From positions 1 through 56,353 of the forward strand of contig DATAES010000196.1 in NCBI GenBank assembly GCA_036257895.1: DNA of 56,353 nucleotides, in the 5' to 3' direction. The notes under the pieces were generated by a model. It was not told where the DNA came from. It worked only from the letters and a program-made list of their open reading frames with translations, and searched no databases. Below, in pieces: positions 5,233 through 51,435 of the stretch; position 1 is the stretch's first letter, and every line of letters begins with the position of its first letter. Made by a program: the position numbers and the translations under genes. The DNA comes from Acidimicrobiales bacterium. Lineage in GTDB: Bacteria; Actinomycetota; Acidimicrobiia; Acidimicrobiales; JACDCH01.

Positions 5233-5256
5233 CGAAGCGTTGCGTAGTCTCGGGTC

Positions 5257-6594
5257 GTGGCGAGACGGCTCGCGGTGATCGGAGGCGACGCCGGCGGGAT
5301 GACTGCCGCCACACAGGCGAGACGACTCGACCCCTCACTCGAGATCGTCGCGTTCGAGAGAACGGAGTGGACGAGCTACTCTGCCTGCGGCATCCCCTAC
5401 GTCGTCAGCGGCGAGGTCGCGGGGGTCGAGCAGCTCGTTGCTCGTACAGCCCAGGAGCATCGCGACCAGTCCCACATCGATGTACGTATGCGTCACGAGG
5501 TCATGGGCATCGACCTGTCGGCCGGACGTGTCGAGGTCCGCGACCACATCCGCGGTCGCACCATCCAGGTTCCGTTCGACCTGCTCCTCCTCGGCATGGG
5601 CGCCCGCCCCATCCGGCCGGACCTCCCGGGTATCGACCTTCCGATCGTCCATGGCGTCCAGACGCTGCAGGATGCGAGCCAACTCCTCCACTACGCCGAG
5701 ACGAGCCGATGTAGCCAGGTGGTCGTCGTCGGGGGCGGCTACATCGGCCTCGAGCTGGCGGAGGCGTTCGTGGCGCGCGATGCCCATGTGACGGTCGTCG
5801 AGGGTGCGGCGCACGTCATGAGCACGCTGGATGGCGACATGGCGGCGCCGATCGAGGACGCGATGCGCAAGCTCGGCATCGACCTCAGGCTGAACACGAA
5901 GGTCATTGGCTTCGAAGACGATGCGGTTCTGACCCGGGACGGTCGGATCGCGGCCGATCTCGTCGTCCTCGGCATCGGGGTCGAACCGAACAGCGGGCTC
6001 GCGCGCGGTGCGGGAATCGAGCTCGGCGTTCGCCGGTCCGTGCACGTTGATCGGCAACAGCGAACCAGTGCGTCGAACGTGTGGGCCGCGGGCGATTGCG
6101 CGGAGTCCTTCCATCTCGTGAGCCGTCGTCCGGTGTACATCGCGCTCGGTACCGTCGCCAACCGACATGGTCGGGTCGCAGGAACGAACATCGGCGGCGG
6201 CTACGCGTCCTTCCCCGGCGTGCTCGGCACGGCGATGACCCGCCTCTGCGCCCTCGAGATCAGCCGCACAGGTTTGAACGAACGTGAGGCCCGCGAGGCT
6301 GCGTTCGACTTCGCCGTCGCCGCCATCGACAGTACGACCTCGGCCGGGTATTTCTCCGATGCGCCGAAGATCACCGTGAAGTTGCTCGCGGAGCGGAGAA
6401 GCGGCCGGATCATCGGCGCGCAGATCGTGGGGGGACGTGGCGCGGCCAAGCGCATCGACGTCGTGGCCGCCGCGATCACCGCGGGGATGGATGCGCAACA
6501 GCTCGTCGACCTCGACTTCGGCTACGCGCCGCCCATGAGTTCGCTGTGGGACCCGATCGCGAGCGCGGCTCGCGTGATTCTTTCGAGGATCTGA
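5257..6594 (+). CDS. FAD-dependent pyridine nucleotide-disulfide oxidoreductase, CoA-disulfide reductase/NADH oxidase family
   Basis: LAVIGGDAGGMTAA (FAD fold), the single active-site Cys context SYSACGIPY, and VVVVGGGYIGLE (NAD fold). 445 aa. Confidence 0.85.
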   Translation: MARRLAVIGGDAGGMTAATQARRLDPSLEIVAFERTEWTSYSACGIPYVVSGEVAGVEQLVARTAQEHRDQSHIDVRMRHEVMGIDLSAGRVEVRDHIRGRTIQVPFDLLLLGMGARPIRPDLPGIDLPIVHGVQTLQDASQLLHYAETSRCSQVVVVGGGYIGLELAEAFVARDAHVTVVEGAAHVMSTLDGDMAAPIEDAMRKLGIDLRLNTKVIGFEDDAVLTRDGRIAADLVVLGIGVEPNSGLARGAGIELGVRRSVHVDRQQRTSASNVWAAGDCAESFHLVSRRPVYIALGTVANRHGRVAGTNIGGGYASFPGVLGTAMTRLCALEISRTGLNEREAREAAFDFAVAAIDSTTSAGYFSDAPKITVKLLAERRSGRIIGAQIVGGRGAAKRIDVVAAAITAGMDAQQLVDLDFGYAPPMSSLWDPIASAARVILSRI

Positions 6595-15582: not shown

Positions 15583-16032
15583 CTATCGCCCGGACGTCGC
15601 CTCGGAACCCTCCGCGGACGCCGGGTCGAAGTCCAGCGAGAGCGAGTTGATGCAGTAGCGCAGGCCCTCGGGCCCCGGCCCGTCGGGGAACACGTGACCG
15701 AGATGCCCCCCGCACCGGGCGCACGTGACTTCGACGCGGTGCATGCCGTGGGAGTAGTCGTCCTCGGTCTTGATGTGCTCGGTGACAGCGGGTGACGTGA
15801 AGCTCGGCCAGCCCGTTCCGGAGTCGAACTTCGTGTCGGACGAGAACAGGTCGGCGCCGCACGCTGCGCACCGGTACATGCCGTCGTCGTGGTTGTACAC
15901 GTACTTTCCCGAGAACGGTGCTTCGGTGCCCTTGCGGCGGAGCACCTCGTACTGCTCGGGGGTCAGGTCGTCGCGCCATTCGTCATCGGACTTGTCGACG
16001 CGCTCGTCTGCGTTCGGGGCAGCTTCGTCCAT
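15583..16032 (-). CDS. msrB: Peptide-methionine (R)-S-oxide reductase
   Basis: [11 protein letters not shown]...GWPSF...[12 protein letters not shown]...RYCINS. Confidence 0.92.
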
Positions 16033-17140
16033 GGCCCCAGCCTACGATTCGATCGTGCTCACGACGTCTCTCGAAGTTGACGCTTCCGCGCTCGAGCGTG
16101 CCACCGGATGGGCAGTCAAGCCCGAAGGCGCCTGCCGAGGTGAGGTGTGCGTGCCGTTGCCCCCCGAGGCCCGGGTCGACGGTGGCAGGATCAGGCTCGA
16201 CGTCGTCGCCGACCGGCTGGGCGCGCCGGTGGTGCACGACGAGGACCGTCAGCTGTGGTCGATGGGGCCGGCGACGGTGGCTGGCCGCGCTCTCGCGAGC
16301 GCTGAGGCTCCCGAGCTGGAACTGCCTGACGTCGACGGCAACGTCTTCAGGTTGTCGTCGCTCCGCGGGAAGAAGGTGCTGCTCGTCGCGTGGGCGTCTT
16401 GGTGAGGGTGTCGGGCGAGCCTGCCCGGGTGGCAGGCGTTCCGGGCTGAGCAGCACGACAACGACTTCGAAGTCGTCACGGTCGGGCTCGATGCGGGCGG
16501 TGCAGCGGCGGCACGCCCGTGGATCGAAGCCGCCAACCCCGACCATCCTTCGCTCATCGACGAGCATCACATCTGCGACGAGCTGTTCGGCATCACGAAC
16601 GTTCCGATGGCGGTGTGGATCGACGAGGACGGCATGATCGTGCGTCCCGCGGAGCCGGCGAGCGTCGAGGCGAGTCCCTTGCGCGACATGGAGGTGCCCG
16701 AGGGGCTGCCGGAACGCCTTCACGACATGCTCGTGGAGGTCACGCACATCCGCGACGACAGTGCTGCGTATCGCGCCGCGTTGGTCGATTGGATCGCAAG
16801 CGGCAGCGACAGCCGCTACGCGTTGTCGCCTGACGAGGTCGTGGCGCGATCGCAACCGCGCGGACACGACGAGGCAGAAGCGGCCGCTTGTTTCGAGCTC
16901 GGCCGGCACTGTCATGTCAACGGCGACGAGGAGGGTGCGGTGCGCTGGTGGCGAGAAGCCCATCGGCTCGACCCGAACAACTGGACCTACAAGCGCCAGG
17001 CGTGGAGCATCGCCACCACGCCGGACGGCGAGCCGAGCGACCTGATGCAGGGTCCAACGGAGTTGTACGAAGGCAACTGGCTCGACGACGTGAAGGCCAT
17101 CGGCGGGGGAGAGAACTACTACCCCGCCTTCGAGCCATGA
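16031..17140 (+). CDS. ResA/TlpA-like thioredoxin-fold protein with in-frame TGA (probable selenocysteine, codon 125) and TPR-like C-terminal region
   Basis: ORFs 15770..16405 and 16607..17140 share one frame (both coordinates mod 3 = 2). My translation of 16406..16606 has no stop. The only interruption is TGA 16403..16405, within ...[11 protein letters not shown][TGA][12 protein letters not shown]...FEVVTVGLD...[15 protein letters not shown]. Confidence 0.7.
16406..16437 (+). promoter_or_regulatory. Candidate bacterial SECIS hairpin
   Basis: 13 nt after the TGA: GCCUGCC (16419..16425) / loop CGGGU / GGCAGGC (16431..16437). The loop G/U residues lie about 24 nt from the UGA. Confidence 0.45.
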
Positions 17141-17538
17141 CGGAAGAGCCGACCGGCATCCTGAACCCGGCGGCCATCGACGCGATCACGACGGGCGACG
17201 ACGGAATCGTGGAACTGCACATCGAGCAGACCGCACCGTGGGACGGCACGGATCATCTGTTGCTGCTCACCCAGGAGAAACTCTGGAACTACCTGGCGTA
17301 CATCGCCGACGGCAAGCTCGCAGGTGAATACCCGGCGGCGAGGGAAGCGCCAGCGACGAGCCGCACTCGGCGGAGGCAGGAGCGAAGCGACGCCCGGAGC
17401 CGAGCAACATGGAGGGTGGTGTTCGAAACGCACGAGGAGCCCGACCGAAGAACGGTCGAGCTCCTCCAGCGAGCCGGCGAACAGTTTCGCCGGTTGGGGG
17501 GCGCTCTTGTCACGCGGCGGATGCCGGCCGATCGCTGA
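17137..17538 (+). CDS. Hypothetical protein (133 aa), ATGA-coupled to the upstream selenoprotein candidate
   Basis: [61 protein letters not shown]. Start overlaps the upstream stop (ATGA at 17137..17140). Confidence 0.55.
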   Translation: MTEEPTGILNPAAIDAITTGDDGIVELHIEQTAPWDGTDHLLLLTQEKLWNYLAYIADGKLAGEYPAAREAPATSRTRRRQERSDARSRATWRVVFETHEEPDRRTVELLQRAGEQFRRLGGALVTRRMPADR

Positions 17539-17677: not shown

Positions 17678-17854
17678 GCTCCGAACGGTACGAAATGCGT
17701 GTGTCGGGCGGTCGACACGACCGTGTCCAGTCCGTCACGATCGGATGAACGATCGCTTTCGCAGCTCCCGTGCGTAGGCTCACGACAACTGCAAGAACGC
17801 GATCAGCGCGCACGGACCCGGGTACAGGACCCGCGTACAGACCCAGGAGGCAGC

Positions 17855-19393
17855 ATGGCCGAGGGCACACCCACCCGCACCGTGGCCGAGGTCATGAGCG
17901 CACCACCGGTGACTGCGGTTCCATCGGAAACGTTGGCCGATGCGTCGAGCCGCATGCGTGACCGAGGCGTCGGCTCCGTCATCGTGGTGGACGGCGAACG
18001 TCCCATAGGCATCTTGACCGAGCGTGATCTCGTGCGCTTCGCGGCATCCGGTGCCGACGCGAGTGGCACGAAGGTCAGCGAGTGGATGACCGAGGACCCT
18101 GATCGCATCGGTCCTGACGTTTTCGTGCAGGAAGCGTTCGCGTCGCTGGCGTCGCACGGGTACCGGCACATACCCGTGGTCGAAGAGGGCCGTCTCGTCG
18201 GCGTCGTCTCGATGCGCGACCTCATGAAGGTGGCGCAGATCCAACCGGTCGTCCATCCGTCGACCATCGAGGCGCCACAGGGGCTCGAGGGTGTGATCGT
18301 CGCCGAGACGTCGGTCGGCGATGTACGCGGTCGGCAGGGCTTCTACCACTACAGGCAGTACAACGCCGTCGAGCTCGCCGACAAGCGACCTCTGGAAGAC
18401 GCATGGAGGCTGCTGTTCGACGGCCAGCTGCCGACACGGCAGGAGCGTGAAGCGTTCCGTCGCGAGATCGCCCCGCTGCGTCGCATCCCCGATGCGGTGC
18501 GACCGATCCTTCCCGAGATCGCGCAGGCTTCGGCTTCGGTGATGGAGGGATTGCGCACGGCGCTGTCGCTCATCGGCGCGGTGGAAGGCTTCAAACCGAC
18601 GCTCGACATTCCTGCGGAGGTGCGTCGCGCCAATGCGATGCAGCTCTGCGCTGTCACGCCGACACTGATCATGGCGTTGCATCGCCACAAGGAAGGCCTC
18701 GAGCCGATCGAGCCGCGCGACGACCTCGGCTATGGCGCCAACTACCTGTGGATGCTCACCGGTGAAGAAGCGGACCCCGACATCGCCCGCGCCGTCGAGC
18801 AGTACCAGATCACGACGATCGATCACGGCTTCAACGCGTCGACGTTCACGGCCCGAGTCATCGTGTCGACCGGCGCCGACGTGAGCGCCGCAGTGGTCGG
18901 CGGCATCGGCGCGCTGTCCGGACCGCTCCACGGTGGCGCCCCGTCGCGTGCCCTCGATCTCCTCGACGCAATCGGAACACCCGAGAACGCGCGGCCCTAC
19001 TTGGTCGACCTGGTACAGCGAGGCCAGCGGATCATGGGCTTCGGTCACCGCGTCTACAAGACCGACGATCCGCGCTCGATCTTCCTGCGCGGCGTAGCCG
19101 AGCGGATCCAGGCGCCGAAGGTCGAGTTCGCCAAGCAGGTCGAGCAGACCGTGGTCGACGTGCTCGCCGAGCTGAAGCCCGGACGCGACCTGTACGCGAA
19201 CGTCGAGTTCTACGCCGGCGTGGTGATGGACTGCGCGCTGCCCCGCGCGTTGTTCACACCGACATTCGCATCCTCCCGAGTGATCGGCTGGGCCGCCAAC
19301 CTGCTGGAGCAAGCCGCCGACAACCGCATCATCCGGCCCTCGGCGCGCTACGTGGGTCCTCGGCCTCCGGTGCCCGTACCCGACGAGGCATGA
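17855..19393 (+). CDS. CBS-pair domain fused to citrate (or 2-methylcitrate) synthase
   Basis: Start at MAEGTP, preceded by a GGAGG SD. CBS pair: VAEVMSAPPVTA...GVGSVIVVD...GILTERDL...HIPVVEEGRLVGVVSMRDL. Citrate synthase part: LEGVIVAETSVGDV...GFGHRVYKTDDPRS. Confidence 0.85.
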   Translation: MAEGTPTRTVAEVMSAPPVTAVPSETLADASSRMRDRGVGSVIVVDGERPIGILTERDLVRFAASGADASGTKVSEWMTEDPDRIGPDVFVQEAFASLASHGYRHIPVVEEGRLVGVVSMRDLMKVAQIQPVVHPSTIEAPQGLEGVIVAETSVGDVRGRQGFYHYRQYNAVELADKRPLEDAWRLLFDGQLPTRQEREAFRREIAPLRRIPDAVRPILPEIAQASASVMEGLRTALSLIGAVEGFKPTLDIPAEVRRANAMQLCAVTPTLIMALHRHKEGLEPIEPRDDLGYGANYLWMLTGEEADPDIARAVEQYQITTIDHGFNASTFTARVIVSTGADVSAAVVGGIGALSGPLHGGAPSRALDLLDAIGTPENARPYLVDLVQRGQRIMGFGHRVYKTDDPRSIFLRGVAERIQAPKVEFAKQVEQTVVDVLAELKPGRDLYANVEFYAGVVMDCALPRALFTPTFASSRVIGWAANLLEQAADNRIIRPSARYVGPRPPVPVPDEA

Positions 19394-22298: not shown

Positions 22299-22766
22299 TC
22301 AAGGTCGCGCTTGGTCGTCCGAACCGCGACCTCGGAGGACTTCGAGGGCCTTGTCGGCGTGCTTGGCCATGCTGATCTCGCTCGAGATCACAGCCAGGAC
22401 CGTCTGATCGGTGTCGATCACGAACGTCGTCCGCTTGTTGGGACCGAAGCCGCGCTTCACACCGAACATCGTCGCCACGGTCTTGTCGGTGTCGGACAGC
22501 AAGGGGTAGTCGAAATCGTGCTTCTCGGAGAACTGGTGCTGCTTGTCGACGCTGTCAGCGCTGATTCCTACCCGCTGCGCGCCAACGGCTTCGAACTCGG
22601 CTTTCAGGTCCCGGAAGTGGCAGCTCTCCTTGGTGCAGCCGTAGGTCATGGCCGCGGGATAGAAGAACAACACCACGGGCCCGTTGGCGAGCAACTCCTT
22701 CAGGCTGCGCTTGGTGCCCGTCTCGTCGGGCAACTCGAAGTCTTCGACCTGATCCCCGACTCTCAT
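22299..22766 (-). CDS. bcp: Thioredoxin-dependent peroxiredoxin Bcp
   Basis: VVLFFYPAAMTYGCTKESCHFRD (peroxidatic and resolving Cys). Confidence 0.9.
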   Translation of the reverse strand: MRVGDQVEDFELPDETGTKRSLKELLANGPVVLFFYPAAMTYGCTKESCHFRDLKAEFEAVGAQRVGISADSVDKQHQFSEKHDFDYPLLSDTDKTVATMFGVKRGFGPNKRTTFVIDTDQTVLAVISSEISMAKHADKALEVLRGRGSDDQARP

Positions 22767-22776
22767 GGCGGGGACG

Positions 22777-24834
22777 CTACTCCTGAGGATGCGTGGCGAT
22801 GTAGTCCGCTGCCGGGATCGGCTCGGGGCTCTCGTAGCCGACCGGCAGATGCACGTCGCCGAGGGTCGTCACGTAGAAGACCTCCCACCGGTAGTAGCCC
22901 GCGAATGCGCTGGGGTCGGCGGCGAGCACGGATGCGATGTCCTTGATCGCGTTCACGTAGTGGCTGCTGCGGTTGTAGTTGAACAGCGCGCCGTCGACAT
23001 TGCCGTCGGCGAAGCCGTTGTGGGCGAGGTACCGGGCCGCGGCGACGATCGAGTCATGCGGCGAGTTGATGTCACCTTGGCCGAACGCGTCCCACGTGGA
23101 CTGGATGAACTGCATCGGGCCTTGGGCGCCGGCCGAGCTCAATCCTTGGATGCGGCCCATGGCGGACTCGATGAGGTTGATCGCGGCGAGGTAGTTCCAG
23201 CCCACCCCGAAGCGCGCCTCGGCCTCGCGATAGTCCGCGAGGAGCTCGTCGCTCGACGCCGGGACGATGATGCGCCAAGCGGGCAAGGTGTCGTGTAGCG
23301 GTGAACCGGGGATGGCCGCGAGCTCGTGGCGGGAGTCGAGGTTGGCCGCGACCGCGTCGTGCAGATCGGCGCCGGCTTTGGCGAGGACCATGCCGTCGAG
23401 CTCAGGCTGACGGCCCAGCCTGCGGTATGCGACCTGCTGCAGGTGCGCAGCGGCGTCCAGTGTCTGCGCCGATGACGCCGGGTCGCGCAGGGCTCGCTCG
23501 GCCGCGACGAGCTGGTCGGCGGCGGTCGCCGGATCGTTCGAGAGTGTCGACGGCAACGAGGAGCCCGCCGCGTCGGCGGACGTCGGGGGCGCGGCCGGAG
23601 CCTGCGGTGTCTGAGGTGTCGTCGTCGACTCGATGCGCTGCACTCCGCTCTGCGTGCTGAGCACGTACATCTCGCCGTCGTGGTCCTCGCCGAACGACGC
23701 CAGGCCGCCCGCCGCGAGACGGAGGTCGGTCACCGAGATCGTGCCGTCGTCCTTGCGCACGAGCCCGTTGATCTTTCCGTCGCAATAGTCGGCGAACAGA
23801 TACGTCCCTTCCAGTGCGGGGATGTCGTTGCCGCGGTAGACGTAACCGCCGGTGATCGAGCAGCGGCCGCCGGAGTGGTCGTATTCGTAGATCGGTGGCA
23901 CGGCCCCGGCGGGCGGTTGCGGCTGCCGGTACGGATGTGTGCCCTCGACGTCGCTCCAACCGAAGTTCTGCCCCGCAGGTGTGCCGGCGGACAGGAAGTT
24001 GATCTCCTCGATGGCGCTTTGGCCGACGTCGGCGATCCACAGGTCCCGAGTCTTGCGATCGAACGACACCCGCCACGGGTTGCGCAGCCCGTACTGCCAC
24101 ACCTCTGGAGCCCCGTTGACGCCGTCCGCGAACGGGTTGTCGGCGGGGATGGCGTAGGGACGGTCGTCGGTGCCGGGGCGGGCGGGGTCGATGCGAAGGA
24201 TGTTGCCGAGCAGGTCCTTCGGGTTCTGGCCCGAGCGGCGTTGGTCCCCGGCGCCGCCGCCATCACCCATCGTCCAGTAGACGAAGCCGTCGGGGCCGAC
24301 GACGACATCCCCGCCGTTGTGGTTCGGCGCGAAGTCGGGGATGACGAGCAGTGTGCGTCGCGTCGAGGTGTCGGTGCGGTCGCCGTCGAAGGAGATCTCG
24401 TCGAGCTGCTGATCCTGTTTGCGGTTCGTGAACGCGAAGTAGAGCGTGCGGCCGTCGTCGGCGAAGGCGAGCCCGAGCAGGCCTTGCTCGCCGCCAGCCG
24501 TGACGTCGCTCGCAATGTCGAGCACGGGCTGGTCATCCAGCGCGAAGTCGTTCCCGTCCCTGCGGATGCGACGGACGCGGCCCTCCTGCTCGGTCACGTA
24601 CAGACTCCTGTCGCCGGTTCGGACCGCGAACGCGGTCGGATTGGCGAGGGTCGCGACTGGCGCGAGCCGCAGCTGCAACTGGGCGAGGTCGGTGCTCGTC
24701 GTAGGCACCGACGACGGCGGGACGGGCCCACCGACCGGGAGGTTGTCGTCGTTCTGCTTCAGCCGTACGACGATGAAGAGAGCGACGACGAGGATGAGGA
24801 TCACGAGGATCCCGACCAGCGCGCGTTTGGTCAT
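22777..24834 (-). CDS. Membrane-anchored fusion: PQQ-type soluble sugar/sorbosone dehydrogenase beta-propeller plus C-terminal lytic transglycosylase (SLT-like) domain
   Basis: Start at MTKRALVGILVILILVVALFIVV (M91 of ORF), overlapping the tesB stop (ATGA). Propeller motifs: GLLGLAF, PNHNGGDVVVGPDG, GLRNPWRVSFD, GGRCSITGGYVYRG. C-terminus: GAQGPMQFIQSTWDAFG...AAARYL. Confidence 0.8.
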   Translation of the reverse strand: MTKRALVGILVILILVVALFIVVRLKQNDDNLPVGGPVPPSSVPTTSTDLAQLQLRLAPVATLANPTAFAVRTGDRSLYVTEQEGRVRRIRRDGNDFALDDQPVLDIASDVTAGGEQGLLGLAFADDGRTLYFAFTNRKQDQQLDEISFDGDRTDTSTRRTLLVIPDFAPNHNGGDVVVGPDGFVYWTMGDGGGAGDQRRSGQNPKDLLGNILRIDPARPGTDDRPYAIPADNPFADGVNGAPEVWQYGLRNPWRVSFDRKTRDLWIADVGQSAIEEINFLSAGTPAGQNFGWSDVEGTHPYRQPQPPAGAVPPIYEYDHSGGRCSITGGYVYRGNDIPALEGTYLFADYCDGKINGLVRKDDGTISVTDLRLAAGGLASFGEDHDGEMYVLSTQSGVQRIESTTTPQTPQAPAAPPTSADAAGSSLPSTLSNDPATAADQLVAAERALRDPASSAQTLDAAAHLQQVAYRRLGRQPELDGMVLAKAGADLHDAVAANLDSRHELAAIPGSPLHDTLPAWRIIVPASSDELLADYREAEARFGVGWNYLAAINLIESAMGRIQGLSSAGAQGPMQFIQSTWDAFGQGDINSPHDSIVAAARYLAHNGFADGNVDGALFNYNRSSHYVNAIKDIASVLAADPSAFAGYYRWEVFYVTTLGDVHLPVGYESPEPIPAADYIATHPQE

Positions 24835-39470: not shown

Positions 39471-40298
39471 TCAGTAGCGGAGTTCGGCGAGTACGCCGTA
39501 GTGGTCGCTCGGCTGCCGACCGTCGACGGCTTCGGTACCGACGACGGCGGAGCGCAGCACGTGACCGGCGCCTTCCTTCTTGGGCCAGCCGACGAAGACG
39601 TAATCGATGCGGCGGTTCGGCTCGAGGTCTTCCTTGGCGAACGTGTTGTCGTTCGACCACGTGAACCCCGGTCCGTCCTCACGCTCGACCGCGGCCTCCC
39701 ACGAGTCGTGGAACACGAGCTTCGGGACCGGCAACTCGGCACGGCCTGTCAGCATCCGGATCTCGTCCGAGTCCGGGACCGCGTTGAAATCGCCGCACAG
39801 CACCGGCGGATACGTCCGCAACGGCGAATCGTGCACGAACTTGGCGATGGCGGCGACCTGCTTCTGGCGGACGTGGCTCTGGTCGAACCGCCAGTTCAGG
39901 TGCGTCGAGAAGACCTGCACCGTTCCCCGCGGTCCGTCGATGTCGGCTCGGACGACGGTGCGGAGCTCGTCGGCATCCGGAGGCGCTGGCAGCGGCATGA
40001 AGTCGTGGCTTTCGATCGGCCACCGCGACAGCACGGCATTGCCCATCTGGACCCCGTTCAGGTCGAGCCGGCTGGCGTACACGTGGTGGTAGCCGAGCCG
40101 GTCCGACAGTTCGGCCGCCTGGTTCCGCGTCCCGTCCTCCCACACCTCCTGGAGGGCGAACACGTCCGCGTCCACGGCCGCCAGCGTCGCCGCGATCGCC
40201 GGGAGACGTTGCTCCCACGGCCCGAACTGCCACCACAGGTTCCAGCTCATGACCCGCAGGCGAGTCTCGATCCGCGTCATCAGGGCCTCCCTTCGCAC
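39471..40298 (-). CDS. Endonuclease/exonuclease/phosphatase (EEP) family protein
   Basis: RVMSWNLWW...DVFALQEV...CGDFNA...SDHYGVLAEL. An alternative start at 40280 (M7) is possible. Confidence 0.85.
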   Translation of the reverse strand: MRREALMTRIETRLRVMSWNLWWQFGPWEQRLPAIAATLAAVDADVFALQEVWEDGTRNQAAELSDRLGYHHVYASRLDLNGVQMGNAVLSRWPIESHDFMPLPAPPDADELRTVVRADIDGPRGTVQVFSTHLNWRFDQSHVRQKQVAAIAKFVHDSPLRTYPPVLCGDFNAVPDSDEIRMLTGRAELPVPKLVFHDSWEAAVEREDGPGFTWSNDNTFAKEDLEPNRRIDYVFVGWPKKEGAGHVLRSAVVGTEAVDGRQPSDHYGVLAELRY

Positions 40299-40306
40299 CC
40301 GGTAGC

Positions 40307-42508
40307 ATGGTCTGTTCCCCGGACAAGGACCCGCGGAGCTTGGCCCTTCATCCTGATCTCGAAGCCGAGCAGGCGTATCTGGACTACGCCTACGAGTGCC
40401 TCGAAGCTGCCCGGCGCCGGGCGGCGGGTCTCGGCTCGATGGTCGAGGTCGGCCGGGGTGGCACCGAGCAGGCCCGGTTCGAGCGCGACGTCATCTGGGA
40501 CACGATCGTGACCCGCTTGCGTGAGCTCGAGCTCGGTGACGCCAGCCTCGTGTTCGGGCGCATCGACCGCTCGCCCGACAACGCTGACAACGCCGACAAC
40601 GGCGACACTGGCGACACCGGAGAGACCTTCTACATCGGCCGCCTCGCCGTGTCCGACGAGGGCCAGGAGCCCGTGGTGGTGGACTGGCGGGCCCCGGTCG
40701 CCGAGCCCTTCTACCGCGCCACCGGTCGCGCGCCGATGGGGCTCGCTCGCCGACGGCACTTCGCCACCAAAGGCCGCAAGCTCCTCGGGATCGAAGACGA
40801 GTTGTTCGGCGACGCCCTGCGGTTCCACGAAGGAGGAACCGAAGGCGCAGACGGCATCGAACGTGACGGCGACAGCGCCGGCTCGGAGCTGACCGGACGC
40901 GGTGCGCTGCTCACGGCCATCGAGTCGGCCCGAACCGGCCGGCTCACCGACATCGTCGCCACCATCCAGGGCGAGCAGGACGAGATCATCCGCTCGGAGC
41001 TCCCAGGCCTGCTCATCGTCCAAGGCGGCCCCGGCACCGGCAAGACCGTCGTGGCGCTGCACCGCGCCGCCTACCTCCTGTACACGCACCGTTTCCCGCT
41101 CGAGGGACAGGGCGTTCTCGTCGTCGGGCCGAACCGGCTCTTCCTCGGCTACATCGAGCAGGTGTTGCCGTCGCTCGGTGAGGCCGGCGTCTCGTTGGTC
41201 GTGCTCGCGGATCTCCTCACCGAGCCGGTTCGGGTGCGTGGTTCCGATCCACCCGTCACTGGACGCATCAAGGGCGACCTGCGCATGGCAGAGCTGCTCG
41301 CGAAAGCGGTGCGCGATCGACGGCGTCCGTTACGGGAGGACTTGCGGATCGGCTTCGGCGTCGAGACCCTGCGCGTCACCACCAACCAGAGCGCGACGAT
41401 CCTCGCCGACGCGCGCCGCCGGGCGCGAACCCACAACGCCGGCCGGCGCTTCGTCGAGCAAGGGGTGTTCGACGCCCTCGCCCGCTCGAGCCATCGAGAC
41501 GATGTCACCGCCGCAGACGTGCGCGACCGGGTCCGCCGCACGGACGAGGTACGCGCCGCGCTCGACTGGATGTGGCCGGTACTCACACCGGCGCACCTGC
41601 TGCACGACTTGTTCGGATCGAGAGCGTTGCTGCGATCTGCCGCCGGCAACGACCTGAGCGACACCGAGCGTGACGCGCTGTACCGCGGGCGCTCCGAGTC
41701 CATCGACGACGTCATCTTCACGAACGATGACGCTCCGCTGCTCGACGAGGCCCGTGCATTGCTCGGGCCGCGGCCTCGCCGGCGCGGCCGCGCGGCAGAC
41801 GAAGATGAGGTCCGTACCTACGGCCACATCGTCGTGGACGAAGCACAGGACCTGTCGCCGATGCAACTGCGGATGCTCGGACGCCGGTCGCTCAACGGCT
41901 CGATGACCGTGGTCGGCGACATCGCGCAGGCCACCGGAGCATGGGCCCACGCCGATTGGGACGAGATCATCTCGCAGCTTCCCGATCGCAGGCCGGCGCG
42001 GCGCGCGGAGCTCACCATCGGCTACCGCATCCCTGCGCCGAACATGGCGTTGGCGGCACGCGTGTTGCGTATCGCGGCTCCTGATCTTGCACCACCGCGT
42101 TCCATCCGTGCGGACGGCTCGGCACCGCGCTTCCTGGCGGTGTCAGCGGACGACGATCTGGGGACGGTGGTCGCGGAGGCCGCGGCGGCCGAGCTCGAAG
42201 CCGTCGGCACGGGCAACGTGGGCGTGATCGTCCCGTCGTCCATGGTCGACGTCGTGACCGGCGGTCTCGAACGAGCCGGTGTCACGTTCGGCAGCGCGAC
42301 GCGGCACGGACTCGACGAGCGCATCACCGTCGTCCCCATCGGACTGGCGAAAGGCCTCGAGCTCGACGCGAGCGTCGTGGTCGAGCCCGCCGCGATCGTC
42401 GAGCAGGAGGCGCAAGGCCTGCGCGCGCTCTATGTCGCACTGACCCGCGCGACGAAACGCCTCACCATCGTCCACGCCCGGCCGCTCCCCGAGTACCTCC
42501 TCGAATGA
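40307..42508 (+). CDS. helD: HelD-like UvrD/Rep superfamily-1 helicase-like ATPase (RNA polymerase recycling factor family)
   Basis: N-terminus EAEQAYLDYAYECLE...FYIGRLAVSDEGQEPVVVDWRAPVAEPFY. Walker A LIVQGGPGTGKTVVALHRAAYLLY. Also IVVDEAQD and C-terminal YVALTRATKRL. Confidence 0.85.
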   Translation: MVCSPDKDPRSLALHPDLEAEQAYLDYAYECLEAARRRAAGLGSMVEVGRGGTEQARFERDVIWDTIVTRLRELELGDASLVFGRIDRSPDNADNADNGDTGDTGETFYIGRLAVSDEGQEPVVVDWRAPVAEPFYRATGRAPMGLARRRHFATKGRKLLGIEDELFGDALRFHEGGTEGADGIERDGDSAGSELTGRGALLTAIESARTGRLTDIVATIQGEQDEIIRSELPGLLIVQGGPGTGKTVVALHRAAYLLYTHRFPLEGQGVLVVGPNRLFLGYIEQVLPSLGEAGVSLVVLADLLTEPVRVRGSDPPVTGRIKGDLRMAELLAKAVRDRRRPLREDLRIGFGVETLRVTTNQSATILADARRRARTHNAGRRFVEQGVFDALARSSHRDDVTAADVRDRVRRTDEVRAALDWMWPVLTPAHLLHDLFGSRALLRSAAGNDLSDTERDALYRGRSESIDDVIFTNDDAPLLDEARALLGPRPRRRGRAADEDEVRTYGHIVVDEAQDLSPMQLRMLGRRSLNGSMTVVGDIAQATGAWAHADWDEIISQLPDRRPARRAELTIGYRIPAPNMALAARVLRIAAPDLAPPRSIRADGSAPRFLAVSADDDLGTVVAEAAAAELEAVGTGNVGVIVPSSMVDVVTGGLERAGVTFGSATRHGLDERITVVPIGLAKGLELDASVVVEPAAIVEQEAQGLRALYVALTRATKRLTIVHARPLPEYLLE
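40577..40621 (+). repeat. In-frame 9-bp tandem repeat x5 inside helD
   Basis: GACAACGCT GACAACGCC GACAACGGC GACACTGGC GACACCGGA, encoding DNA-DNA-DNG-DTG-DTG. Confidence 0.85.
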
Positions 42509-42572: not shown

Positions 42573-43271
42573 TCAGGTCATGACGAGGATACGGGCGCTG
42601 GCGAATGCGCCGATGCCCACGGCGCGGCCTTCGATCTCGACGGTGGTCGTCCCGTCCGGGGACGTCGCGGTGATCGTGCCGTGCCGGCCGGGCAGCACGT
42701 CGGCCTCCTCCAGGAACTCGAGGATGCCGGGCGCGAACTCGAGCTCCTCAGGGATGCGCGACACGGTGAAGGGGTGTCCGACGCCGACGTCCGACAACGG
42801 GACCGCGTCAGGTGGTGCGTACCCCATCCCCGGGATCGGGTTGCCGTGCGGGCACGTGGTGGGGTTGTCGAGCACCCGGGAGATGGCGGCGTCGACGCGG
42901 TCGGAGATGACGTGTTCCCACTTGCCCGCTTCCTTGTGCGCCTCCGCCCACGACAGCCCCAGCATGTCGGTGAGGAACCGCTCGGCCAAGCGGTGACGGC
43001 GCACCACCCGCTCGGCGAGCCGCATGCCACCGGCGGTGAGGCCGATGGACGTGCCGGACAGCTCGACCAGCTCCGCCGCCTCCATCCGCTTGATCATCTC
43101 GGACACGGCAGGGCGCGAGACCCCGAGGCGCTCCGCGATGCGGGCCTGTATGACGTCGACGTCGTCCTCCCGCAGTTCGAAGACGGCCTCGCAGTACTCC
43201 TCGAAGGCGGGATGCCACTCGGGGGACTCGTACTCGGCCACGGGCGGGATTCTACGGGGCGTCACTGTCAC
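42573..43271 (-). CDS. DtxR/IdeR/MntR family metal-dependent transcriptional repressor with SH3-like C-terminal domain
   Basis: IQARIAERLGVSRPAVSEMIKRMEAAELV (HTH), RRHRLAERFLTDMLGLSW, and EAGKWEHVIS (Gly where IdeR/DtxR carry the Cys ligand). Alternative GTG start at 43238. Confidence 0.85.
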   Translation of the reverse strand: MTVTPRRIPPVAEYESPEWHPAFEEYCEAVFELREDDVDVIQARIAERLGVSRPAVSEMIKRMEAAELVELSGTSIGLTAGGMRLAERVVRRHRLAERFLTDMLGLSWAEAHKEAGKWEHVISDRVDAAISRVLDNPTTCPHGNPIPGMGYAPPDAVPLSDVGVGHPFTVSRIPEELEFAPGILEFLEEADVLPGRHGTITATSPDGTTTVEIEGRAVGIGAFASARILVMT

Positions 43272-43287
43272 ACCTCCTGCTTATGGT
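43266..43287 (+). promoter_or_regulatory. RecA-independent DNA-damage promoter-like motif (RecA-NDp / PafBC type) upstream of lhr
   Basis: TGTCAcac-N8-TATGGT versus the recalled consensus tTGTCRgtg-N8-TAnnnT, with exact spacing. The -10 element ends 7 nt before ATG 43295. Confidence 0.35.
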
Positions 43288-46200
43288 TTTCACCATGAGC
43301 GGTGCGGAGTTCTCGCCGAGCGATGCGTCTGCCTCGGAGTTCTCGCCGCCAGTGCAGGCGTGGTTCGACACGACGTTCGCCGCCCCCACGGAGGCACAGC
43401 GCCAAGGGTGGCCGGCCATCGCCGCCGGCGACCACACCCTCGTGCTCGCCCCGACCGGGTCGGGCAAGACACTGGCGGCCTTCCTGTGGGGCATCGACCG
43501 GTTGATGAGCGAGGCGCCACCGGAGAAGGACGAGCGCACGCGCTTGCTCTACGTGTCGCCGCTGCGGGCCCTTGCCGTCGACGTCGAGAAGAACCTCCGA
43601 GCCCCGTTGGCCGGCATCAGGTTGGCGGCGGAGCGGCTGGGCGTCGAGATCCACGAGCCGACCGTCGGGATGCGAACCGGCGACACGAGCGCAGACGAAC
43701 GCCGACGGCTGGTCCGGTACCCGGCCGACATCCTCATCACCACACCCGAGTCGCTCTACCTCATGCTCACGTCGCAGGCGCGCGAGACCCTGCGCAATGT
43801 CGAAGCGGTCATCGTGGACGAGATCCATTCGGTTGCCGCGACGAAGCGGGGCGCCCATCTCGCGTTGACACTCGAGCGCCTCGACGCGATCTGCGATCGG
43901 CCGCCGCAACGTATCGGCCTGTCGGCCACGCAGCGACCGCTCGACGAGATCGCCCGCTTCCTCGGCGGGCGCGACCTCGCCGGGCAGCCCCGGAAGGTCA
44001 CGATCGTCGACGCCGGAATGCGCAAGCCGCTCGAAGTCGAGGTGATCGTTCCCGTCGACGACATGGGCGCGCTCGGCGAGATCATCGACGAGCCGGTGTC
44101 GGGGCCCGCGGCCGCCGGGCCGCTGCGCCGGAGCATCTGGCCCTCGATGCACCCGCGCCTGCTCGAGTTGGTCGAGTCGCACCGCTCGACACTCATCTTC
44201 GTCAATGCCCGGCGGCTCGCGGAACGCCTTGCGACTCGGCTCAACGAGTTGGCGTCCGAGCGTGACGGCGCCCCGGTCAACACGGGCGCCGAGCAGGTCG
44301 GTGCCCCGCCGCCCGACTTCGAACTGGTCAAGGCGCACCACGGGTCGCTGTCGCGAGAACGGCGGGTTCAGCTCGAAGACGAGCTCAAGTCGGGTCGGTT
44401 GCGAGGCCTCGTGTGCACGTCCACGCTCGAGCTCGGCATCGACATGGGCGCCGTCGATCTCGTCGTGCAAGTCGAGTCGCCCCGATCGGTTGCCGCCGGT
44501 CTGCAGCGGATCGGTCGGGCCGGCCACCAGGTCGGTGAACCGAGCAGGGGCAAGCTGTTCCCGAAGCACCGCGCCGATCTGGTCGAGGCCTCCGTCGTCG
44601 TCCGTCGTATGCAGGACGGCTTGATCGAGCACACGCACTACCCGCGCAACCCGCTCGACGTGCTCGCGCAACAGATCGTCGCCATGTGCGCGCTCGACGA
44701 ATGGAAGGTCGACGAGCTCGCTGCGCTCGTGCGTCGCGCCGCCAACTTCGCCGAGCTGTCCGACGAGGTCTTCACCTCCGTGCTCGACCTGCTGGCGGGG
44801 CGCTATCCGAGCGACGAGTTCGCCGAGCTTCGCCCTCGCATCGTGTGGGACCGTGTCAACGGCATCGTCCGTGGCCGCGCCGGGGCGCAACGACTCGCCG
44901 TGACGAGCGGCGGCACGATCCCCGACCGCGGGTTGTTCGGCGTCTTTCTTCCCGACGGCACGCGGGTGGGCGAGCTCGACGAAGAGATGGTGTACGAGTC
45001 ACGCGCCGGTGAGACGTTCCTGCTCGGCGCGTCGACCTGGCGCATCGAGGACATCACCTTCGAGCGCGTGATCGTCACCCCCGCGCCTGGCCTGCCGGGG
45101 AAGATGCCGTTCTGGCACGGCGACGGTCCCGGCCGGCCGCTCGAACTCGGACGGGCGGTCGGGTCCTTCGTGCGCGACGTCCGCTCGTGGGGCGACGGCG
45201 CGGCCCAACGGCTGCATGTCGACTACGGGCTCGACGAGCTCGCGGCCGGCAATCTCGTGCAGTACCTCGACGACCAAGCCGAAGCCACCGGAGTCGTGCC
45301 CGACGATCGCACCATCGTCGTCGAGCGGTTTCGCGACGAGATCGGCGACTGGCGGGTCTGCGTGCTCTCACCGTTCGGTGCGCAAGTGCATGCGCCGTGG
45401 GCCATGGCGTTGCAAGCGCGCCTTGCCGACCGGTGGGGCCTCGACGTCGAGTTGCTGTGGAGCGACGACGGGGTCGTGCTGCGGCTACCCGAGGCGATCG
45501 ACGAGCTTCCCGTCGACGACCTGTTGATCGATCCCGACGACATCGACGAGTTGGTGATCTCGCAACTACCGAGCTCGGCGCTGTTCGCTGCTCGCTTTCG
45601 GGAGTGCGCGGCGCGCGCGTTGCTGTTGCCGCGACGGCGGCCCGATCGGCGCACGCCCTTGTGGCAGCAACGCCAGAAGGCGGCCGACCTGCTGTCCGTC
45701 GCAGCGAGGCATCCGACGTTCCCGATCCTGCTCGAGACCACGCGCGAATGCCTGAACGACGTGTTCGACCTGCCGGCCTTGCGCGACGTGCTCACCGAGT
45801 TGCGCTCGCGTGCGATCCGGGTCGTTTCCGTCGACACGCCGAGGGCGTCGCCGTTCGCGCAGTCGCTGCTGTTCTCGTGGATCTCCGTCTACATGTACGA
45901 GGGCGACACCCCACTGGCGGAGCGTCGAGCCGCCGCGCTCGCGCTCGACCGCGATCTGCTGCGCGACCTGCTGGGCGCGGAGGAGCTGCGCGAGCTTCTC
46001 GATCCTTCCGTGCTCGCCGACCTCGAGCTCGAGCTGCAGCACCTCGTCGAGGGACGACGAGCCCGCGACGCGGATGAACTGCACGACCTGCTCCGGCTGC
46101 TCGGACCATTGACGATCACCGAGCTGGACGCGCGCGCCGAAGGCGATCCGTCAGCATGGCTCGACCTCCTCGTGCAACAACGACGAGCCATCGCGGTGAC

Positions 46201-48638: not shown

Positions 48639-49912
48639 GAAAGCGAGACCATGTCGCAGTGATCGGCGCGGGGTTCGGCGGGCTCGCTGCCACGAAGAGA
48701 CTCGCCGAGGCCGACGTCGACGTCACCCTCGTCGATCGGCACAACTACCACACGTTCCAGCCGTTGCTGTACGAAGTCGCCACTGCCGGACTGAATGCCG
48801 CCGATGTCGCATACGCCGTACGGGGCATCTTCCGCCGCCAGCACAACGTGACCTTTCGGCGCGCAACCGTCACCGGCGTCGATTGGACGCAGCACACCCT
48901 CGAGCTCGACCGCGGCGAGGAGCAGTCACTTGGATTCGATCATCTGGTGATCGCCGCGGGCTCGACCACGGCCTACTTCGGGATCCCCGGCGCGGCGGAG
49001 AACGCGTTCCCGCTCTATTCACTCGTCGACGCCATCGCGCTGCGCAATCACATCCTCGACCGCTTCGAAGCAGCAGATGCCGATCCGTCGCTGATCGACG
49101 ACGGCGCGCTCACGTTCGTGATCGTCGGCGGAGGGCCGACCGGCGTAGAGGTGTCGGGTGCGATGTCCGAGCTGTTCGGCATGGTGATGCGCAAGGACTT
49201 CCGCTCGCTCGACGTCGGCAAGGCGCGTGTGATCCTCATCGAGATGGCAGATGTCCTGCTGCAGCCCTTCTCCGACTCGTCGCAGCGACACGCGCGCGAA
49301 ACGCTGCAGGGTATGGGCGTCGACGTCCGCACCGGCGAAGCGGTCACGAGCGTCACGCCGACCCGCATCACGCTCGGTTTCGGTGAGGAGCTCGCCGCGC
49401 ACACGCTCGTGTGGGCCGCCGGCGTGCAGGCCAACCCGCTAGCGGCCACGCTCGAGGTTCCGACCGGCCGCGCCGGTCGCATCGAAGTCGGACGCGACCT
49501 GCGCATCGCCGGCCATCGCGAAGCATTCGCCATCGGCGATGTCGCTGCCATCCCGGACGGGCACGGCAGCGTGTTGCCTGCCGTCGCACCGGTCGCAATG
49601 CAGTCGGGCCGGCACGCGGCCGACGAGATCGTGCGAGCGATCCACGGCCGGCGCCCGCGTCCGTTCCACTACTTGGACAAGGGCATCATGGCGACGATCG
49701 GCCGGCGCGCCGCCGTCGCGGAACTGCCGTTGCGCATCCGGCTCTGGGGGACACCGGCATGGCTGGCATGGCTCGGCTTGCACCTCGTGACGCTCGTCGG
49801 CTTCCGCAACCGCTTGTCGGTGTTCCTCAACTGGGCGTGGAACTACTTGACCTGGGACCGCGGTCCTCGCCTCATCCTTCGGACTGACCGCGAGCCGGAA
49901 GCATCGCCCTGA
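48635..49912 (+). CDS. ndh: Type II NADH dehydrogenase (NDH-2)
   Basis: HVAVIGAGFGGLAATKRL...FQPLLYEVATAGL...FVIVGGGPTGVE...IGDVAAIP. GTG start overlaps the nei stop (GTGA). Confidence 0.88.
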   Translation: MRKRDHVAVIGAGFGGLAATKRLAEADVDVTLVDRHNYHTFQPLLYEVATAGLNAADVAYAVRGIFRRQHNVTFRRATVTGVDWTQHTLELDRGEEQSLGFDHLVIAAGSTTAYFGIPGAAENAFPLYSLVDAIALRNHILDRFEAADADPSLIDDGALTFVIVGGGPTGVEVSGAMSELFGMVMRKDFRSLDVGKARVILIEMADVLLQPFSDSSQRHARETLQGMGVDVRTGEAVTSVTPTRITLGFGEELAAHTLVWAAGVQANPLAATLEVPTGRAGRIEVGRDLRIAGHREAFAIGDVAAIPDGHGSVLPAVAPVAMQSGRHAADEIVRAIHGRRPRPFHYLDKGIMATIGRRAAVAELPLRIRLWGTPAWLAWLGLHLVTLVGFRNRLSVFLNWAWNYLTWDRGPRLILRTDREPEASP

Positions 49913-51389: not shown

Positions 51390-51435
51390 GGTCGTGAGTT
51401 TGCCTCTGGGCCGGCGCTCTCGGAGACTGCGGTCG

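Follow-up and report, generated by a model that had tools for sequence, protein, structure and literature searches.

Since 2008, selenoproteins with a UGC motif in an AhpC-TSA/TlpA-like (cd02966) fold have appeared in reports on selenoproteins under the name 'Prx-like (UGC-containing)' (e.g., MDE0950781.1); they have many Cys homologues and are commoner in non-marine samples. Owing to this long record the family is already known, being present in databases and reviews. A literature search retrieved no paper with 'WAxxUGC', nor with 'ResA-like' in combination with 'selenoprotein'; papers on the family use other names for it. In NCBIfam, the model 'ResA-like WAxxUGC motif-containing protein' (WAxxUGC_long, NF041054) probably represents the same family, as judged from motif and domain only. 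Three features reported below, namely the N-terminal Cys-x4-Cys domain, the TPR-like domain at the C-terminus and the SECIS element, are not covered in the Prx-like papers.

With respect to fold, the closest described proteins are the extracytoplasmic thiol-disulfide oxidoreductases ResA (Bacillus subtilis), TlpA (Bradyrhizobium) and CcmG/DsbE, which share with the protein studied here a thioredoxin fold with the TlpA-type insertion, the W-C/U active-site position and a cis-Pro loop. The present protein differs from them by its U-G-C instead of CxxC, by lacking an anchor or signal peptide and by extra N- and C-terminal domains. Bacterial SECIS elements are described by the bSECIS model (PMC13188914) as having a loop of 3-9 nt with G among its first two nucleotides, a stem of 4-16 bp, a spacing of 16-37 nt and a free energy not above -7.5 kcal/mol. 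The present gene is located in a 56,353-nt contig of an uncultured Acidimicrobiales bacterium, analyzed at its full length and referred to as the window (Table 1).

Table 1. Features of the WAxxUGC locus and its immediate neighbours (coordinates refer to the window)
Feature	Position	Strand	Remarks
msrB (methionine-R-sulfoxide reductase)	15583..16032	-	Divergent; Pfam SelR 4.5e-52; ATG start shares CATG with that of the gene at 16031
Predicted selenoprotein gene	16031..17140	+	369 codons + stop; NF041054 'ResA-like WAxxUGC' family
N-terminal domain, residues 1-85	16031..16285	+	Family-specific; T-G-W-x-x-K-P-E-G-x-C35-x4-C40-x-P
Thioredoxin-fold (Redoxin/AhpC-TSA, TlpA/ResA-like) domain, residues 90-205	16298..16645	+	cis-Pro loop N190-V-P192
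In-frame TGA, almost certainly read as selenocysteine U125	16403..16405	+	First residue of the U-G-C redox motif
Cys127, partner residue in U-G-C	16409..16411	+	Invariant in 82/82 genes
Possible extended SECIS with lower stem	16411..16444	+	16411-16415 pairs with 16440-16444; single-sequence fold
SECIS-like hairpin GCCUGCC-CGGGU-GGCAGGC	16419..16437	+	Within the CDS; 7-bp stem, 5-nt loop CGGGU (16426-16430)
C-terminal helical domain, residues 206-369	16646..17137	+	Conserved N-W-T-Y-K-R-Q-A-W; helical in the homologue model
TPR-like repeat, residues 284-317	16880-16981	+	TPR_2 24.5 bits, just under the Pfam cut-off of 27
DUF6572 ORF	17137..17538	+	PF20212 1.1e-10; overlaps the stop codon as ATGA

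Reading frame and family membership

Translation of the gene yields one frame of 369 sense codons and a terminal stop, the sole internal stop being the TGA at codon 125 within the motif W121-A-S-W-[TGA]-G-C127. The ORF list shows the gene as two pieces in the same frame (15770..16405 and 16607..17140). This agrees with an earlier sequence-only reading, which had proposed a single frame split by one TGA. The true start may be the GTG at 16055, since the first residue of homologues aligns with V9. The same gene with the identical TGA (0-2 mismatches per 1110 nt) recurs in four independent metagenome assemblies (L081-L084), which excludes a sequencing error; gene callers cut these copies into products of 124 and 177 aa. 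A scan of the window revealed no further credible in-frame TGA with coding-like flanks, only off-frame noise. The window's other genes mostly stop at TGA, which rules out a reassigned genetic code.

When searched with U entered as C, the protein matched NF041054 with 535.9 bits (cut-off 300), residues 10-368 aligning with profile positions 2-353 of 354. The conjecture of an existing database family with a WAxxUGC name was thus borne out, and the protein is a further NF041054 member from an uncultured Acidimicrobiia lineage. It has the W-A-x-x-U-G-C motif and the three-domain length of the family, and does not differ from it in any tested feature.

The codon aligned with the TGA was compared across 82 homologous genes (Actinomycetota, Pseudomonadota, Chloroflexota, Myxococcota and Binataceae MAGs), as had been suggested beforehand: it is TGA in 74 and TGC in eight. 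Cultured carriers of the TGA form include Salinilacustrithrix flava EGI L10123 (L015, NZ_CP133888.1) and Pseudonocardia kunmingensis DSM 45301 (L073), and the protein of L004 (contig CAWDIH010000001.1) shows 88 % identity. Each Cys form is one polypeptide, 344-371 aa in length, and full-length homologues carrying WASWCGC are present in the protein database. Together with the NF041054 match, this Sec/Cys pairing favours the initial idea of a ResA/TlpA-like protein with selenocysteine in its redox motif. Purifying selection acts on both gene halves, dN/dS being 0.12-0.48 on either side of the TGA in eight comparisons. Single 1-nt indels in four homologous loci (L004, L005, L071 and L075) are assumed to be assembly errors, because all four belong to the 'MFD' MAG series, from which a frameshifted selD (L116) also originates.

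SECIS-like hairpin and selenocysteine machinery

The hairpin begins 13 nt past the TGA, in the position and with the sequence originally read, and encodes S-L-P-G-W-Q-A. Its 6-bp core stem (16420-16425/16431-16436) is conserved family-wide: the hairpin is kept in 74/74 TGA forms, with the 6-bp stem paired in 99.5 % of cells (RNAalifold consensus, pair counts). Compensatory changes were found at pair 18-34 (C-G to U-A in five sequences) and at pair 21-31 (G-C to C-G in L068, with Q replaced by E in the protein), and the observed covariation score was reached by 0/500 shuffles. Synonymous codons at the hairpin are strongly constrained in the TGA forms and deviate markedly from gene-wide use, with Leu encoded by CTG in 72/74 (36 % gene-wide use), Pro by CCC in 63/69 (39 %), Gly by GGG in 26/27 (15 %) and Val by GTG in 42/47 (38 %). 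In the Cys forms, the hairpin is mostly absent despite the same flanking L-P and W-Q residues; Leu is encoded by CTC in 6/8 of them and the stem is broken. The proposed association of the hairpin with TGA forms is therefore found, as conservation with covariation in these and degradation in the Cys forms. A smaller point, better supported than the redox relay considered below, is that the SECIS loop dictates one residue of the protein, i.e., G or V in Sec forms and L in Cys forms.

Considered alone, the 19-nt hairpin has a z-score of -2.45, whereas its 76-nt GC-rich context does not fold more stably than shuffled sequence (z = +0.38). Since stability in context is not significant, the case for the hairpin rests on the comparative evidence. 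All four bSECIS constraints (PMC13188914) agree with the hairpin, which has a 5-nt loop, a stem of 6-7 bp, 20 nt between UGA and loop and a free energy of -12.7 kcal/mol; loop position 2 is G, followed by G or U, as the model asks. With the E. coli fdhF-type SECIS it shares the stem-loop in the coding region just past the UGA, the small apical loop and the G followed by G/U; it differs from the fdhF element in having no sequence resemblance, and no bulged U was identified in the window hairpin. Only the window sequence itself is predicted to form the lower stem, which the RNAalifold family consensus lacks. Across the whole window, Rfam gave no match at the gathering threshold and, near the hairpin, only noise (snoRNA models, E > 1). 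This was to be expected, since we know of no Rfam model for such a hairpin.

Within the window, neither selA, selB and selD nor tRNA-Sec was found (ARAGORN and Rfam for tRNA-Sec; NCBIfam scans of 30 window ORFs for sel genes). Likewise, tblastn with approximate sequences of E. coli SelA and SelD gave no match in the window or in the homologous loci (L001-L084). Other genomes were searched with a DNA pattern for the SelD motif and then with SelD and SelB profiles derived from Acidimicrobiia-type loci, and MAG accessions were matched. Adjacent selA-selB genes are present in at least four MAGs that also carry the TGA gene, i.e., those of L003 (a syntenic relative), L027, L070 and L075; in the L003 MAG, TIGR00474 scored 376.7 bits (NCBIfam cut-off 267.9) and TIGR00475 277 bits (cut-off 242). 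In at least four other MAGs (L006, L018, L020 and L078) selD was found. Among the matches listed, at least eight TGA-carrier genomes thus possess selA-selB or selD. None of the four matching MAG loci showed a tRNA-Sec gene next to selA-selB; such a gene adjoins selB in four other loci, most of them labelled Actinomycetes or Acidimicrobiaceae. Of the genes that the sequence-only reading had recommended to search for, selA-selB or selD were found in related TGA carriers and none within the 56-kb window.

From these data, the in-frame TGA almost certainly specifies selenocysteine, its reading being aided by the conserved downstream hairpin. By analogy to E. coli fdhF, the hairpin would recruit SelB-GTP-Sec-tRNA(Sec) to the ribosome, whereupon selenocysteine would be inserted.

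Three other explanations of the TGA have to be weighed. In case of a nonsense-mutated pseudogene, a change from TGC to TGA would have killed a Cys-type ResA-like gene, the remainder of which has not yet decayed. The halt of gene callers at the TGA, the window without Sec machinery and the 1-nt indels in four related loci could be taken to indicate this. However, the indels are confined to the MAG series that is also home of the frameshifted selD, a TGA at the same codon in 74/82 genes over several phyla is at odds with a pseudogene, and so are the low dN/dS on either side and the conserved hairpin with compensatory changes that follows the TGA in TGA forms only. The comparative data effectively refute the pseudogene, which is the least probable of the three explanations. 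Also highly improbable, if a little less so than the other two, is read-through of the UGA without selenocysteine, either by a near-cognate tRNA inserting Trp or Cys or by the hairpin slowing termination. It draws on the inserted residue not being identifiable from sequence alone and on the tRNA-Sec not found beside selA-selB in the four carrier MAG loci, but leaves unexplained why homologues have a redox-active Cys at this position (the classic Sec/Cys signature), why the hairpin conforms to the bacterial SECIS model and why a curated selenoprotein model fits the protein. Moreover, selA and selB occur together in at least four carrier MAGs and have no known role beyond selenocysteine insertion.

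The third explanation, true termination at the TGA, would yield a 124-residue N-terminal product and a separately initiated C-terminal protein (e.g., from the ATG at 16607), in line with the products of 124 and 177 aa in ORF lists and public calls. Some termination probably does compete with selenocysteine insertion, as in known bacterial selenoproteins. A regular cut at this position would, however, sever one thioredoxin fold within its active-site helix, and the stretch from the TGA to the first ATG (residues 126-192) is conserved at the protein level (invariant G126, C127, R128, H172, P173, D177, H180, N190 and P192); in addition, the Cys forms consist of one polypeptide. Two separate products are thus very doubtful, ranking between the pseudogene and read-through without selenocysteine. 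Reading of UGA125 as selenocysteine, in a soluble selenoprotein of three domains and about 40 kDa belonging to the 'ResA-like WAxxUGC' family, is in contrast highly probable.

Domain structure and proposed function

The N-terminal domain has no Pfam match even at E = 10, and sequences related to it belong to this family, either at full length or as fragments. Of six atypical matches to this domain that were compared with Pfam, two had no match and four were interpretable, as a member of the family, a probable fusion in gene calling or a spurious hit on a giant surface protein. Its cysteines Cys35 (codon 16133-16135) and Cys40 (codon 16148-16150) are both present in 81/82 genes. The central domain matches the Pfam families Redoxin (7e-13) and AhpC-TSA (8e-12). 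A peroxiredoxin motif (P-x-x-x-T/S-x-x-C) was considered and rejected, as L-V-A-W-A-S-W-U lacks the Pro at -7 as well as the Thr/Ser at -3; the AhpC-TSA match reflects the common fold only. For structural comparison, the Cys homologue P0024 was modelled (pLDDT 94), which shares 55 % identity with the window protein; its top Foldseek matches were ResA, DsbE and TlpA (E ~1e-10, TM-score ~0.75 on target). Compared with the CxxC of ResA/TlpA, U-G-C is short of one residue, and the HMMER alignment to 3kcm_A shows a one-residue gap versus W-C-P-P-C. The family models of ResA, TlpA and DsbE score far below their own cut-offs.

No hydrophobic segment was detected in the protein, the maximum 19-residue Kyte-Doolittle value (1.0) being located at the active-site strand, and the N-terminus is acidic and polar. 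With neither signal peptide nor membrane anchor, the protein is expected to act in the cytoplasm, unlike ResA, TlpA and CcmG. The original designation as ResA/TlpA-like accordingly holds for the thioredoxin fold; since a membrane anchor is absent, the protein is ResA-like in fold only.

Sec125 would occupy the place of the attacking cysteine in TlpA/ResA-type folds, at the N-terminus of helix alpha-1, with the resolving Cys127 one residue off. The most likely reaction would be selenol/thiol-disulfide exchange via a strained selenylsulfide. Judging from CxC peptides, such a centre would be expected to have less reducing power than thioredoxin and to be more suitable for isomerase- or oxidase-type reactions. 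A thioredoxin-like fold with a C-x-U motif is also found in Sep15 (SELENOF), a eukaryotic ER protein. In Sep15, and as predicted for the present protein, a selenylsulfide-forming pair is separated by a single residue, but the order is C-G-U in Sep15 and U-G-C here, and the two belong to unrelated sequence families, so that the comparison serves as an analogy only.

Cys35-x4-Cys40 may constitute a second redox centre exchanging with U-G-C, and the TPR-like domain at the C-terminus may serve to bind a protein substrate. One may further speculate that Cys35, Cys40, Sec125 and Cys127 form an internal redox relay or a metal/iron-sulfur site, in a new type of cytoplasmic selenoenzyme with a TPR-like substrate holder, but this is regarded as unlikely.

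Gene neighbourhood and implications

The sequence-only reading had drawn attention to the overlaps of the gene with msrB (CATG) and with the DUF6572 ORF (ATGA). Both overlaps are real, but the adjacency of these two genes is lineage-specific, being common only to five close relatives (L001-L005). A coupling with msrB and DUF6572 as a family feature was therefore dismissed, and clustering of neighbours gave no conserved partner. The largest recurrent neighbour clusters, assigned by sequence reading, are SDR-like (13 loci), flavin/F420-type oxidoreductase-like (12) and enoyl-CoA hydratase-like (10). Genes for cytochrome-c maturation or Sco/Cox were not among the recurrent neighbours in the window and 80 related genome loci.

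For annotation, the locus exemplifies a real gene that is halved by standard gene callers, as in the public calls of 124 and 177 aa, and protein databases contain hundreds of family fragments (N-terminal ~115 aa, C-terminal ~221-241 aa). The family SECIS consensus CCUGCC-CGKGU-GGCAGG, located 14 nt past the UGA, could be used for automatic rescue of such split genes. With respect to biology, the present findings point towards the use of selenocysteine by uncultured soil and freshwater Acidimicrobiia in a thioredoxin-fold protein that is probably cytoplasmic.

Reading frame and homologues of the candidate selenoprotein gene

The candidate selenoprotein gene (coordinates of all features in the table below) is represented in the mechanical ORF list by two same-frame ORFs, and its translation comprises 369 sense positions with the TGA at position 125 (U125) of a W-A-S-W-U-G-C motif as the sole internal stop, i.e., the single interruption of one frame that the sequence-only reading had described. 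Since the homologues begin at the residue aligned with V9, the true start may, judging from this alignment, be GTG 16055 instead of ATG 16031; a 22-nt gap would then separate the divergent genes, without overlap.

Features of the window
Feature	Position	Strand	Remarks
Candidate selenoprotein gene	16031..17140	+	
Upstream ORF of the pair	15770..16405	+	ends with the TGA
Downstream ORF of the pair	16607..17140	+	
Region up to residue V9	16031-16057	+	possible start GTG 16055
TGA codon (U125)	16403-16405	+	
SECIS-like hairpin	16419..16437	+	GCCUGCC-CGGGU-GGCAGGC
Codon 133 (residue x)	16427-16429	+	within hairpin loop
msrB	15583..16032	-	divergent; Pfam SelR 4.5e-52; start codon overlaps ATG 16031 in CATG
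DUF6572 ORF	17137..17538		DUF6572 match; overlaps stop of selenoprotein gene as ATGA
CBS-citrate synthase	17699-19393	+	N-terminal CBS-domain pair; NCBIfam citrate synthase and CBS-type matches
CoA-disulfide-reductase-like flavoprotein	5248-6594	+	under equivalog cut-off; no in-frame TGA
BCP/PrxQ-type peroxiredoxin	22299-22868	-	no in-frame TGA
HelD/HelR-like RNA-polymerase recycling ATPase	40253-42508	+	under cut-off
Lhr-type helicase ORF	43154-47818	+	1554 residues; NF007284 1450 bits, cut-off 1496
ATP-dependent DNA ligase	49872-51521	-	

Scanning of one genome per species yielded 80 homologue-bearing loci, mostly in Acidimicrobiia MAGs, with further carriers among MAGs of Pseudomonadota, Dehalococcoidia, Binataceae and Myxococcota as well as two isolates (Salinilacustrithrix flava and Pseudonocardia kunmingensis). 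Together with the window gene and a second tandem copy in L020, 82 genes were compared, as the sequence-only reading had suggested, for the codon aligned with U125: TGA in 74 and TGC in eight. The Sec forms display the motifs WASW-U-GC (38), WAPY-U-GC (22), WSPY-U-GC (8), WSSW-U-GC (4), WASY-U-GC (1) and WAPW-U-GC (1), and all eight Cys forms WASWCGC. The tandem paralogues (L020:6337 and L020:7412; Acidimicrobiales MAG MFD09368.bin.2.121) carry WASY-U-GC and WAPY-U-GC, both with TGA and hairpin. In the protein database, the nearest relatives share 75-90 % identity and are fragments from the C-terminus (212-241 aa), while the full-length entries, 344-373 aa long, have C-G-C and represent Cys forms. 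The N-terminal 85 residues as query mostly returned fragments of ~75-170 aa (many ~115 aa), which are the portions of Sec forms upstream of the TGA. In one public gene call (P0134, 431 aa), which is probably a mis-called fusion spanning adjacent genes, the C-terminus of an amidase runs on into the N-terminal domain of the family.

Sequencing error as source of the TGA is ruled out by four independent JGI metagenome contigs (L081-L084), which contain the identical TGA and gene with 0-2 mismatches per 1110 nt and whose gene calls list a 124-aa and a 177-aa product from this one gene. Reassignment of TGA in the organism is likewise ruled out, since TGA terminates most candidate ORFs of the window; a scan of the whole window revealed no further credible in-frame TGA with coding-like flanks. 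Pseudogene formation, for which the sequence-only reading had named additional frame-disrupting lesions in orthologues as a sign, has in its favour single 1-nt indels at L004:6828, L005:6748, L071:1333 and L075:6770-6786. All four loci come from MAGs of the "MFD" series, a fifth member of which has a frameshifted selD (L116:4221-4281), and protein identity in L004 and L005 is maintained at 86-88 % on either side of the indel; therefore, the indels look like long-read assembly errors and not gene decay. dN/dS values of the window gene versus eight relatives are 0.12-0.48 on either side of the TGA. Both the observation and its interpretation as probable Sec recoding at the redox motif of a ResA/TlpA-like protein were right.

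SECIS-like hairpin and selenocysteine machinery

The previously recognized hairpin indeed starts 13 nt past the TGA. From the ungapped 54-nt alignment of the 74 TGA forms (TGA onward), RNAalifold derived one consensus consisting of a 6-bp stem (columns 18-23 with 29-34; 99.5 % paired cells) and a 5-nt loop. At pair 18-34, C-G is replaced by U-A in five sequences and by U-G in four, at pair 21-31 L068 has C-G in place of G-C (CTG to CTC and CAG to GAG, protein Q to E), and the three remaining variable pairs show G-U wobbles only; the observed covariation score was matched by 0/500 shuffles. Since the stem is encoded by the codons for Leu-Pro-x-Trp-Gln, protein conservation could account for it, but as a full explanation this is ruled out by codon choice at the hairpin as compared to gene-wide use in the same TGA-form genes: CTG for Leu (72/74 versus 36 %), CCC for Pro (63/69 versus 39 %), GGG for Gly (26/27 versus 15 %) and GTG for Val (42/47 versus 38 %). 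The eight Cys forms retain L-P and W-Q around x, but use CTC for Leu (6/8) and CCG for Pro (7/8), and hence the stem is broken, so that the hairpin, conserved in the TGA forms, is mostly lost here. Residue x, located in the SECIS loop, is exclusively G or V in the 74 Sec forms (mostly GGG or GTG, i.e., GKG) versus mostly L in the Cys forms; the RNA element thus dictates one amino acid of the protein.

The bacterial SECIS model comprises a 3-9 nt loop on a 4-16 bp stem, a G at loop position 1 or 2 with a G or U after it, a UGA-to-loop spacing of 16-37 nt and a free energy of <= -7.5 kcal/mol (PMC13188914, 2026 review). The element conforms to the model on all four points (loop C-G-G-G-U or C-G-U-G-U; spacing 20 nt; -12.7 kcal/mol for the window hairpin). 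Hairpin stability is not significant by itself in the wider GC-rich context, and no Rfam match was obtained.

As neither tRNA nor sel genes were found within the 56-kb window, sel genes were sought instead in the genomes carrying TGA forms. Searching for the SelD motif D-[VIL]-[YF]-A-M-G-G with a DNA pattern retrieved at least 120 loci (SelD encoded by 115 of 120 among the matches listed), at least two of them sharing MAGs with L020 and L018. A profile built from a divergent SelD of Acidimicrobiia (motif EWTSCGGCAAKW; TIGR00476 317 bits, cut-off 125) added at least 80 loci, at least two in the MAGs of L006 and L078. With a SelB profile (domains II-IV) built from the actinobacterial loci L184 (Acidimicrobiales MAG) and L124, at least 80 loci were detected, at least four of them in the MAGs of L003, L027, L070 and L075; among the matches listed, selA adjoins selB in 71 of 80. 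Both genes of the L003 MAG score above cut-off (selA, TIGR00474 376.7 bits versus 267.9; selB, TIGR00475 277 bits versus 242). Thus, the proposed insertion genes are present as selA/selB or selD in at least eight carrier MAGs, whereas tRNA-Sec was not found beside selA/selB in the MAGs of L003, L027, L070 and L075; it adjoins selB in four other loci among the matches listed.

Acidimicrobiia SelD proteins are of two kinds. The canonical one is itself a selenoprotein (SHGAG-[TGA]-ACKL; L134:5241-6140 (-), L201:4457-5404 (-)), the divergent one a Cys form still above the TIGR00476 cut-off (L115:3857-4858, L205-L284). The latter adjoins selB in L285, L286 and L290 (also selA where the locus is long enough) and stands alone in the 80 listed loci of its profile scan, mostly from Ilumatobacteraceae and other Acidimicrobiia MAGs.

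Domain architecture and gene neighbourhood

Entered with U as C, the protein matches NCBIfam NF041054.1 (WAxxUGC_long, equivalog, "ResA-like WAxxUGC motif-containing protein") with 535.9 bits (curated cut-off 300; residues 10-368 versus profile positions 2-353 of 354), confirming the suggestion that the family is catalogued under this name. NCBIfam models of TlpA, ResA, StoA and DsbE reach only 20-51 bits, far under their cut-offs. Pfam assigns Redoxin and AhpC-TSA to residues 90-205 and, slightly below threshold, a TPR_2 repeat to residues 284-317; residues 1-85 have no Pfam match even at E = 10. The Cys-type homologue P0024 (55 % identical) was modelled with AlphaFold from a 79-sequence alignment (mean pLDDT 94, pTM 0.91); the model resembles ResA, DsbE and TlpA structures in its central domain (Foldseek E ~1e-10, target-normalised TM-score ~0.75), and its flanking domains had no structural match in the same search. 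In the HMMER alignment, W-A-S-W-C-G-(gap)-C-R stands opposite W-A-T-W-C-P-P-C-R of a thioredoxin-family protein of solved structure; due to this one-residue gap, the redox pair is one residue closer than in CxxC proteins. The Sec/Cys pair occupies the attacking position of the TlpA-type thioredoxin fold. The equivalent of Cys127, two positions after Sec/Cys, is invariant across the family, a second invariant pair (Cys35-x4-Cys40; 81/82 genes) resides in the family-specific N-terminal domain, and the helical, TPR-like C-terminal domain is conserved (motif NWTYKRQAW). In contrast to the membrane-anchored ResA and TlpA, no hydrophobic segment was detected (top Kyte-Doolittle score over 19 residues, 1.0), pointing to a soluble protein without membrane anchor.

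The divergent msrB and the ATGA-coupled ORF, both noted from sequence alone, were recovered with their overlaps. L003 is a close syntenic relative sharing amidase, PAC2, msrB, DUF6572 and CBS-citrate-synthase neighbours with the window. These occur near the gene mainly in L001-L005, where the CBS-citrate synthase fusion is also kept, with scattered weaker matches to some of them in few other loci. Among ORFs clustered within 5 kb (80 loci and window), no neighbour is conserved in more than 13 loci; the family gene is effectively stand-alone. Linkage to msrB/DUF6572 is thus ruled out as a family feature: the proximity of msrB stems from recent common ancestry and is uninformative on the family, while fitting an oxidative-stress setting in the L001-L005 lineage.

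Proposed function and significance

The hairpin would allow SelB to deliver Sec-tRNA(Sec) to the UGA. The selenolate would then attack a disulfide or oxidised substrate, and Cys127 would resolve the attack as selenylsulfide. Because just one residue separates Sec and Cys, a strained selenylsulfide and a centre that is less reducing than thioredoxin would be expected, by analogy to CxC peptides and to Sep15 with its C-x-U motif. Recycling of the U-G-C centre may fall to the N-terminal Cys pair, and binding of a protein substrate to the TPR-like domain.

The family is already known, being curated in NCBIfam and present in the selenoprotein literature: one Prx-like sequence with UXC motif was reported in 2005 (PMC1088965), and the 2008 GOS analysis listed 46 Sec and 855 Cys sequences as "Prx-like (UGC-containing)", more abundant in non-marine samples (PMC2398784). 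No experimental work was found in the literature on WAxxUGC/ResA-like selenoproteins. The window gene is a correctly recognized member of this known, uncharacterised selenoprotein family, to which the present analysis adds a SECIS consensus across the family, the influence of this element on which codons and amino acids are used, and the invariant Cys pair of the N-terminal domain; it also shows the msrB and DUF6572 linkage to be lineage-specific.
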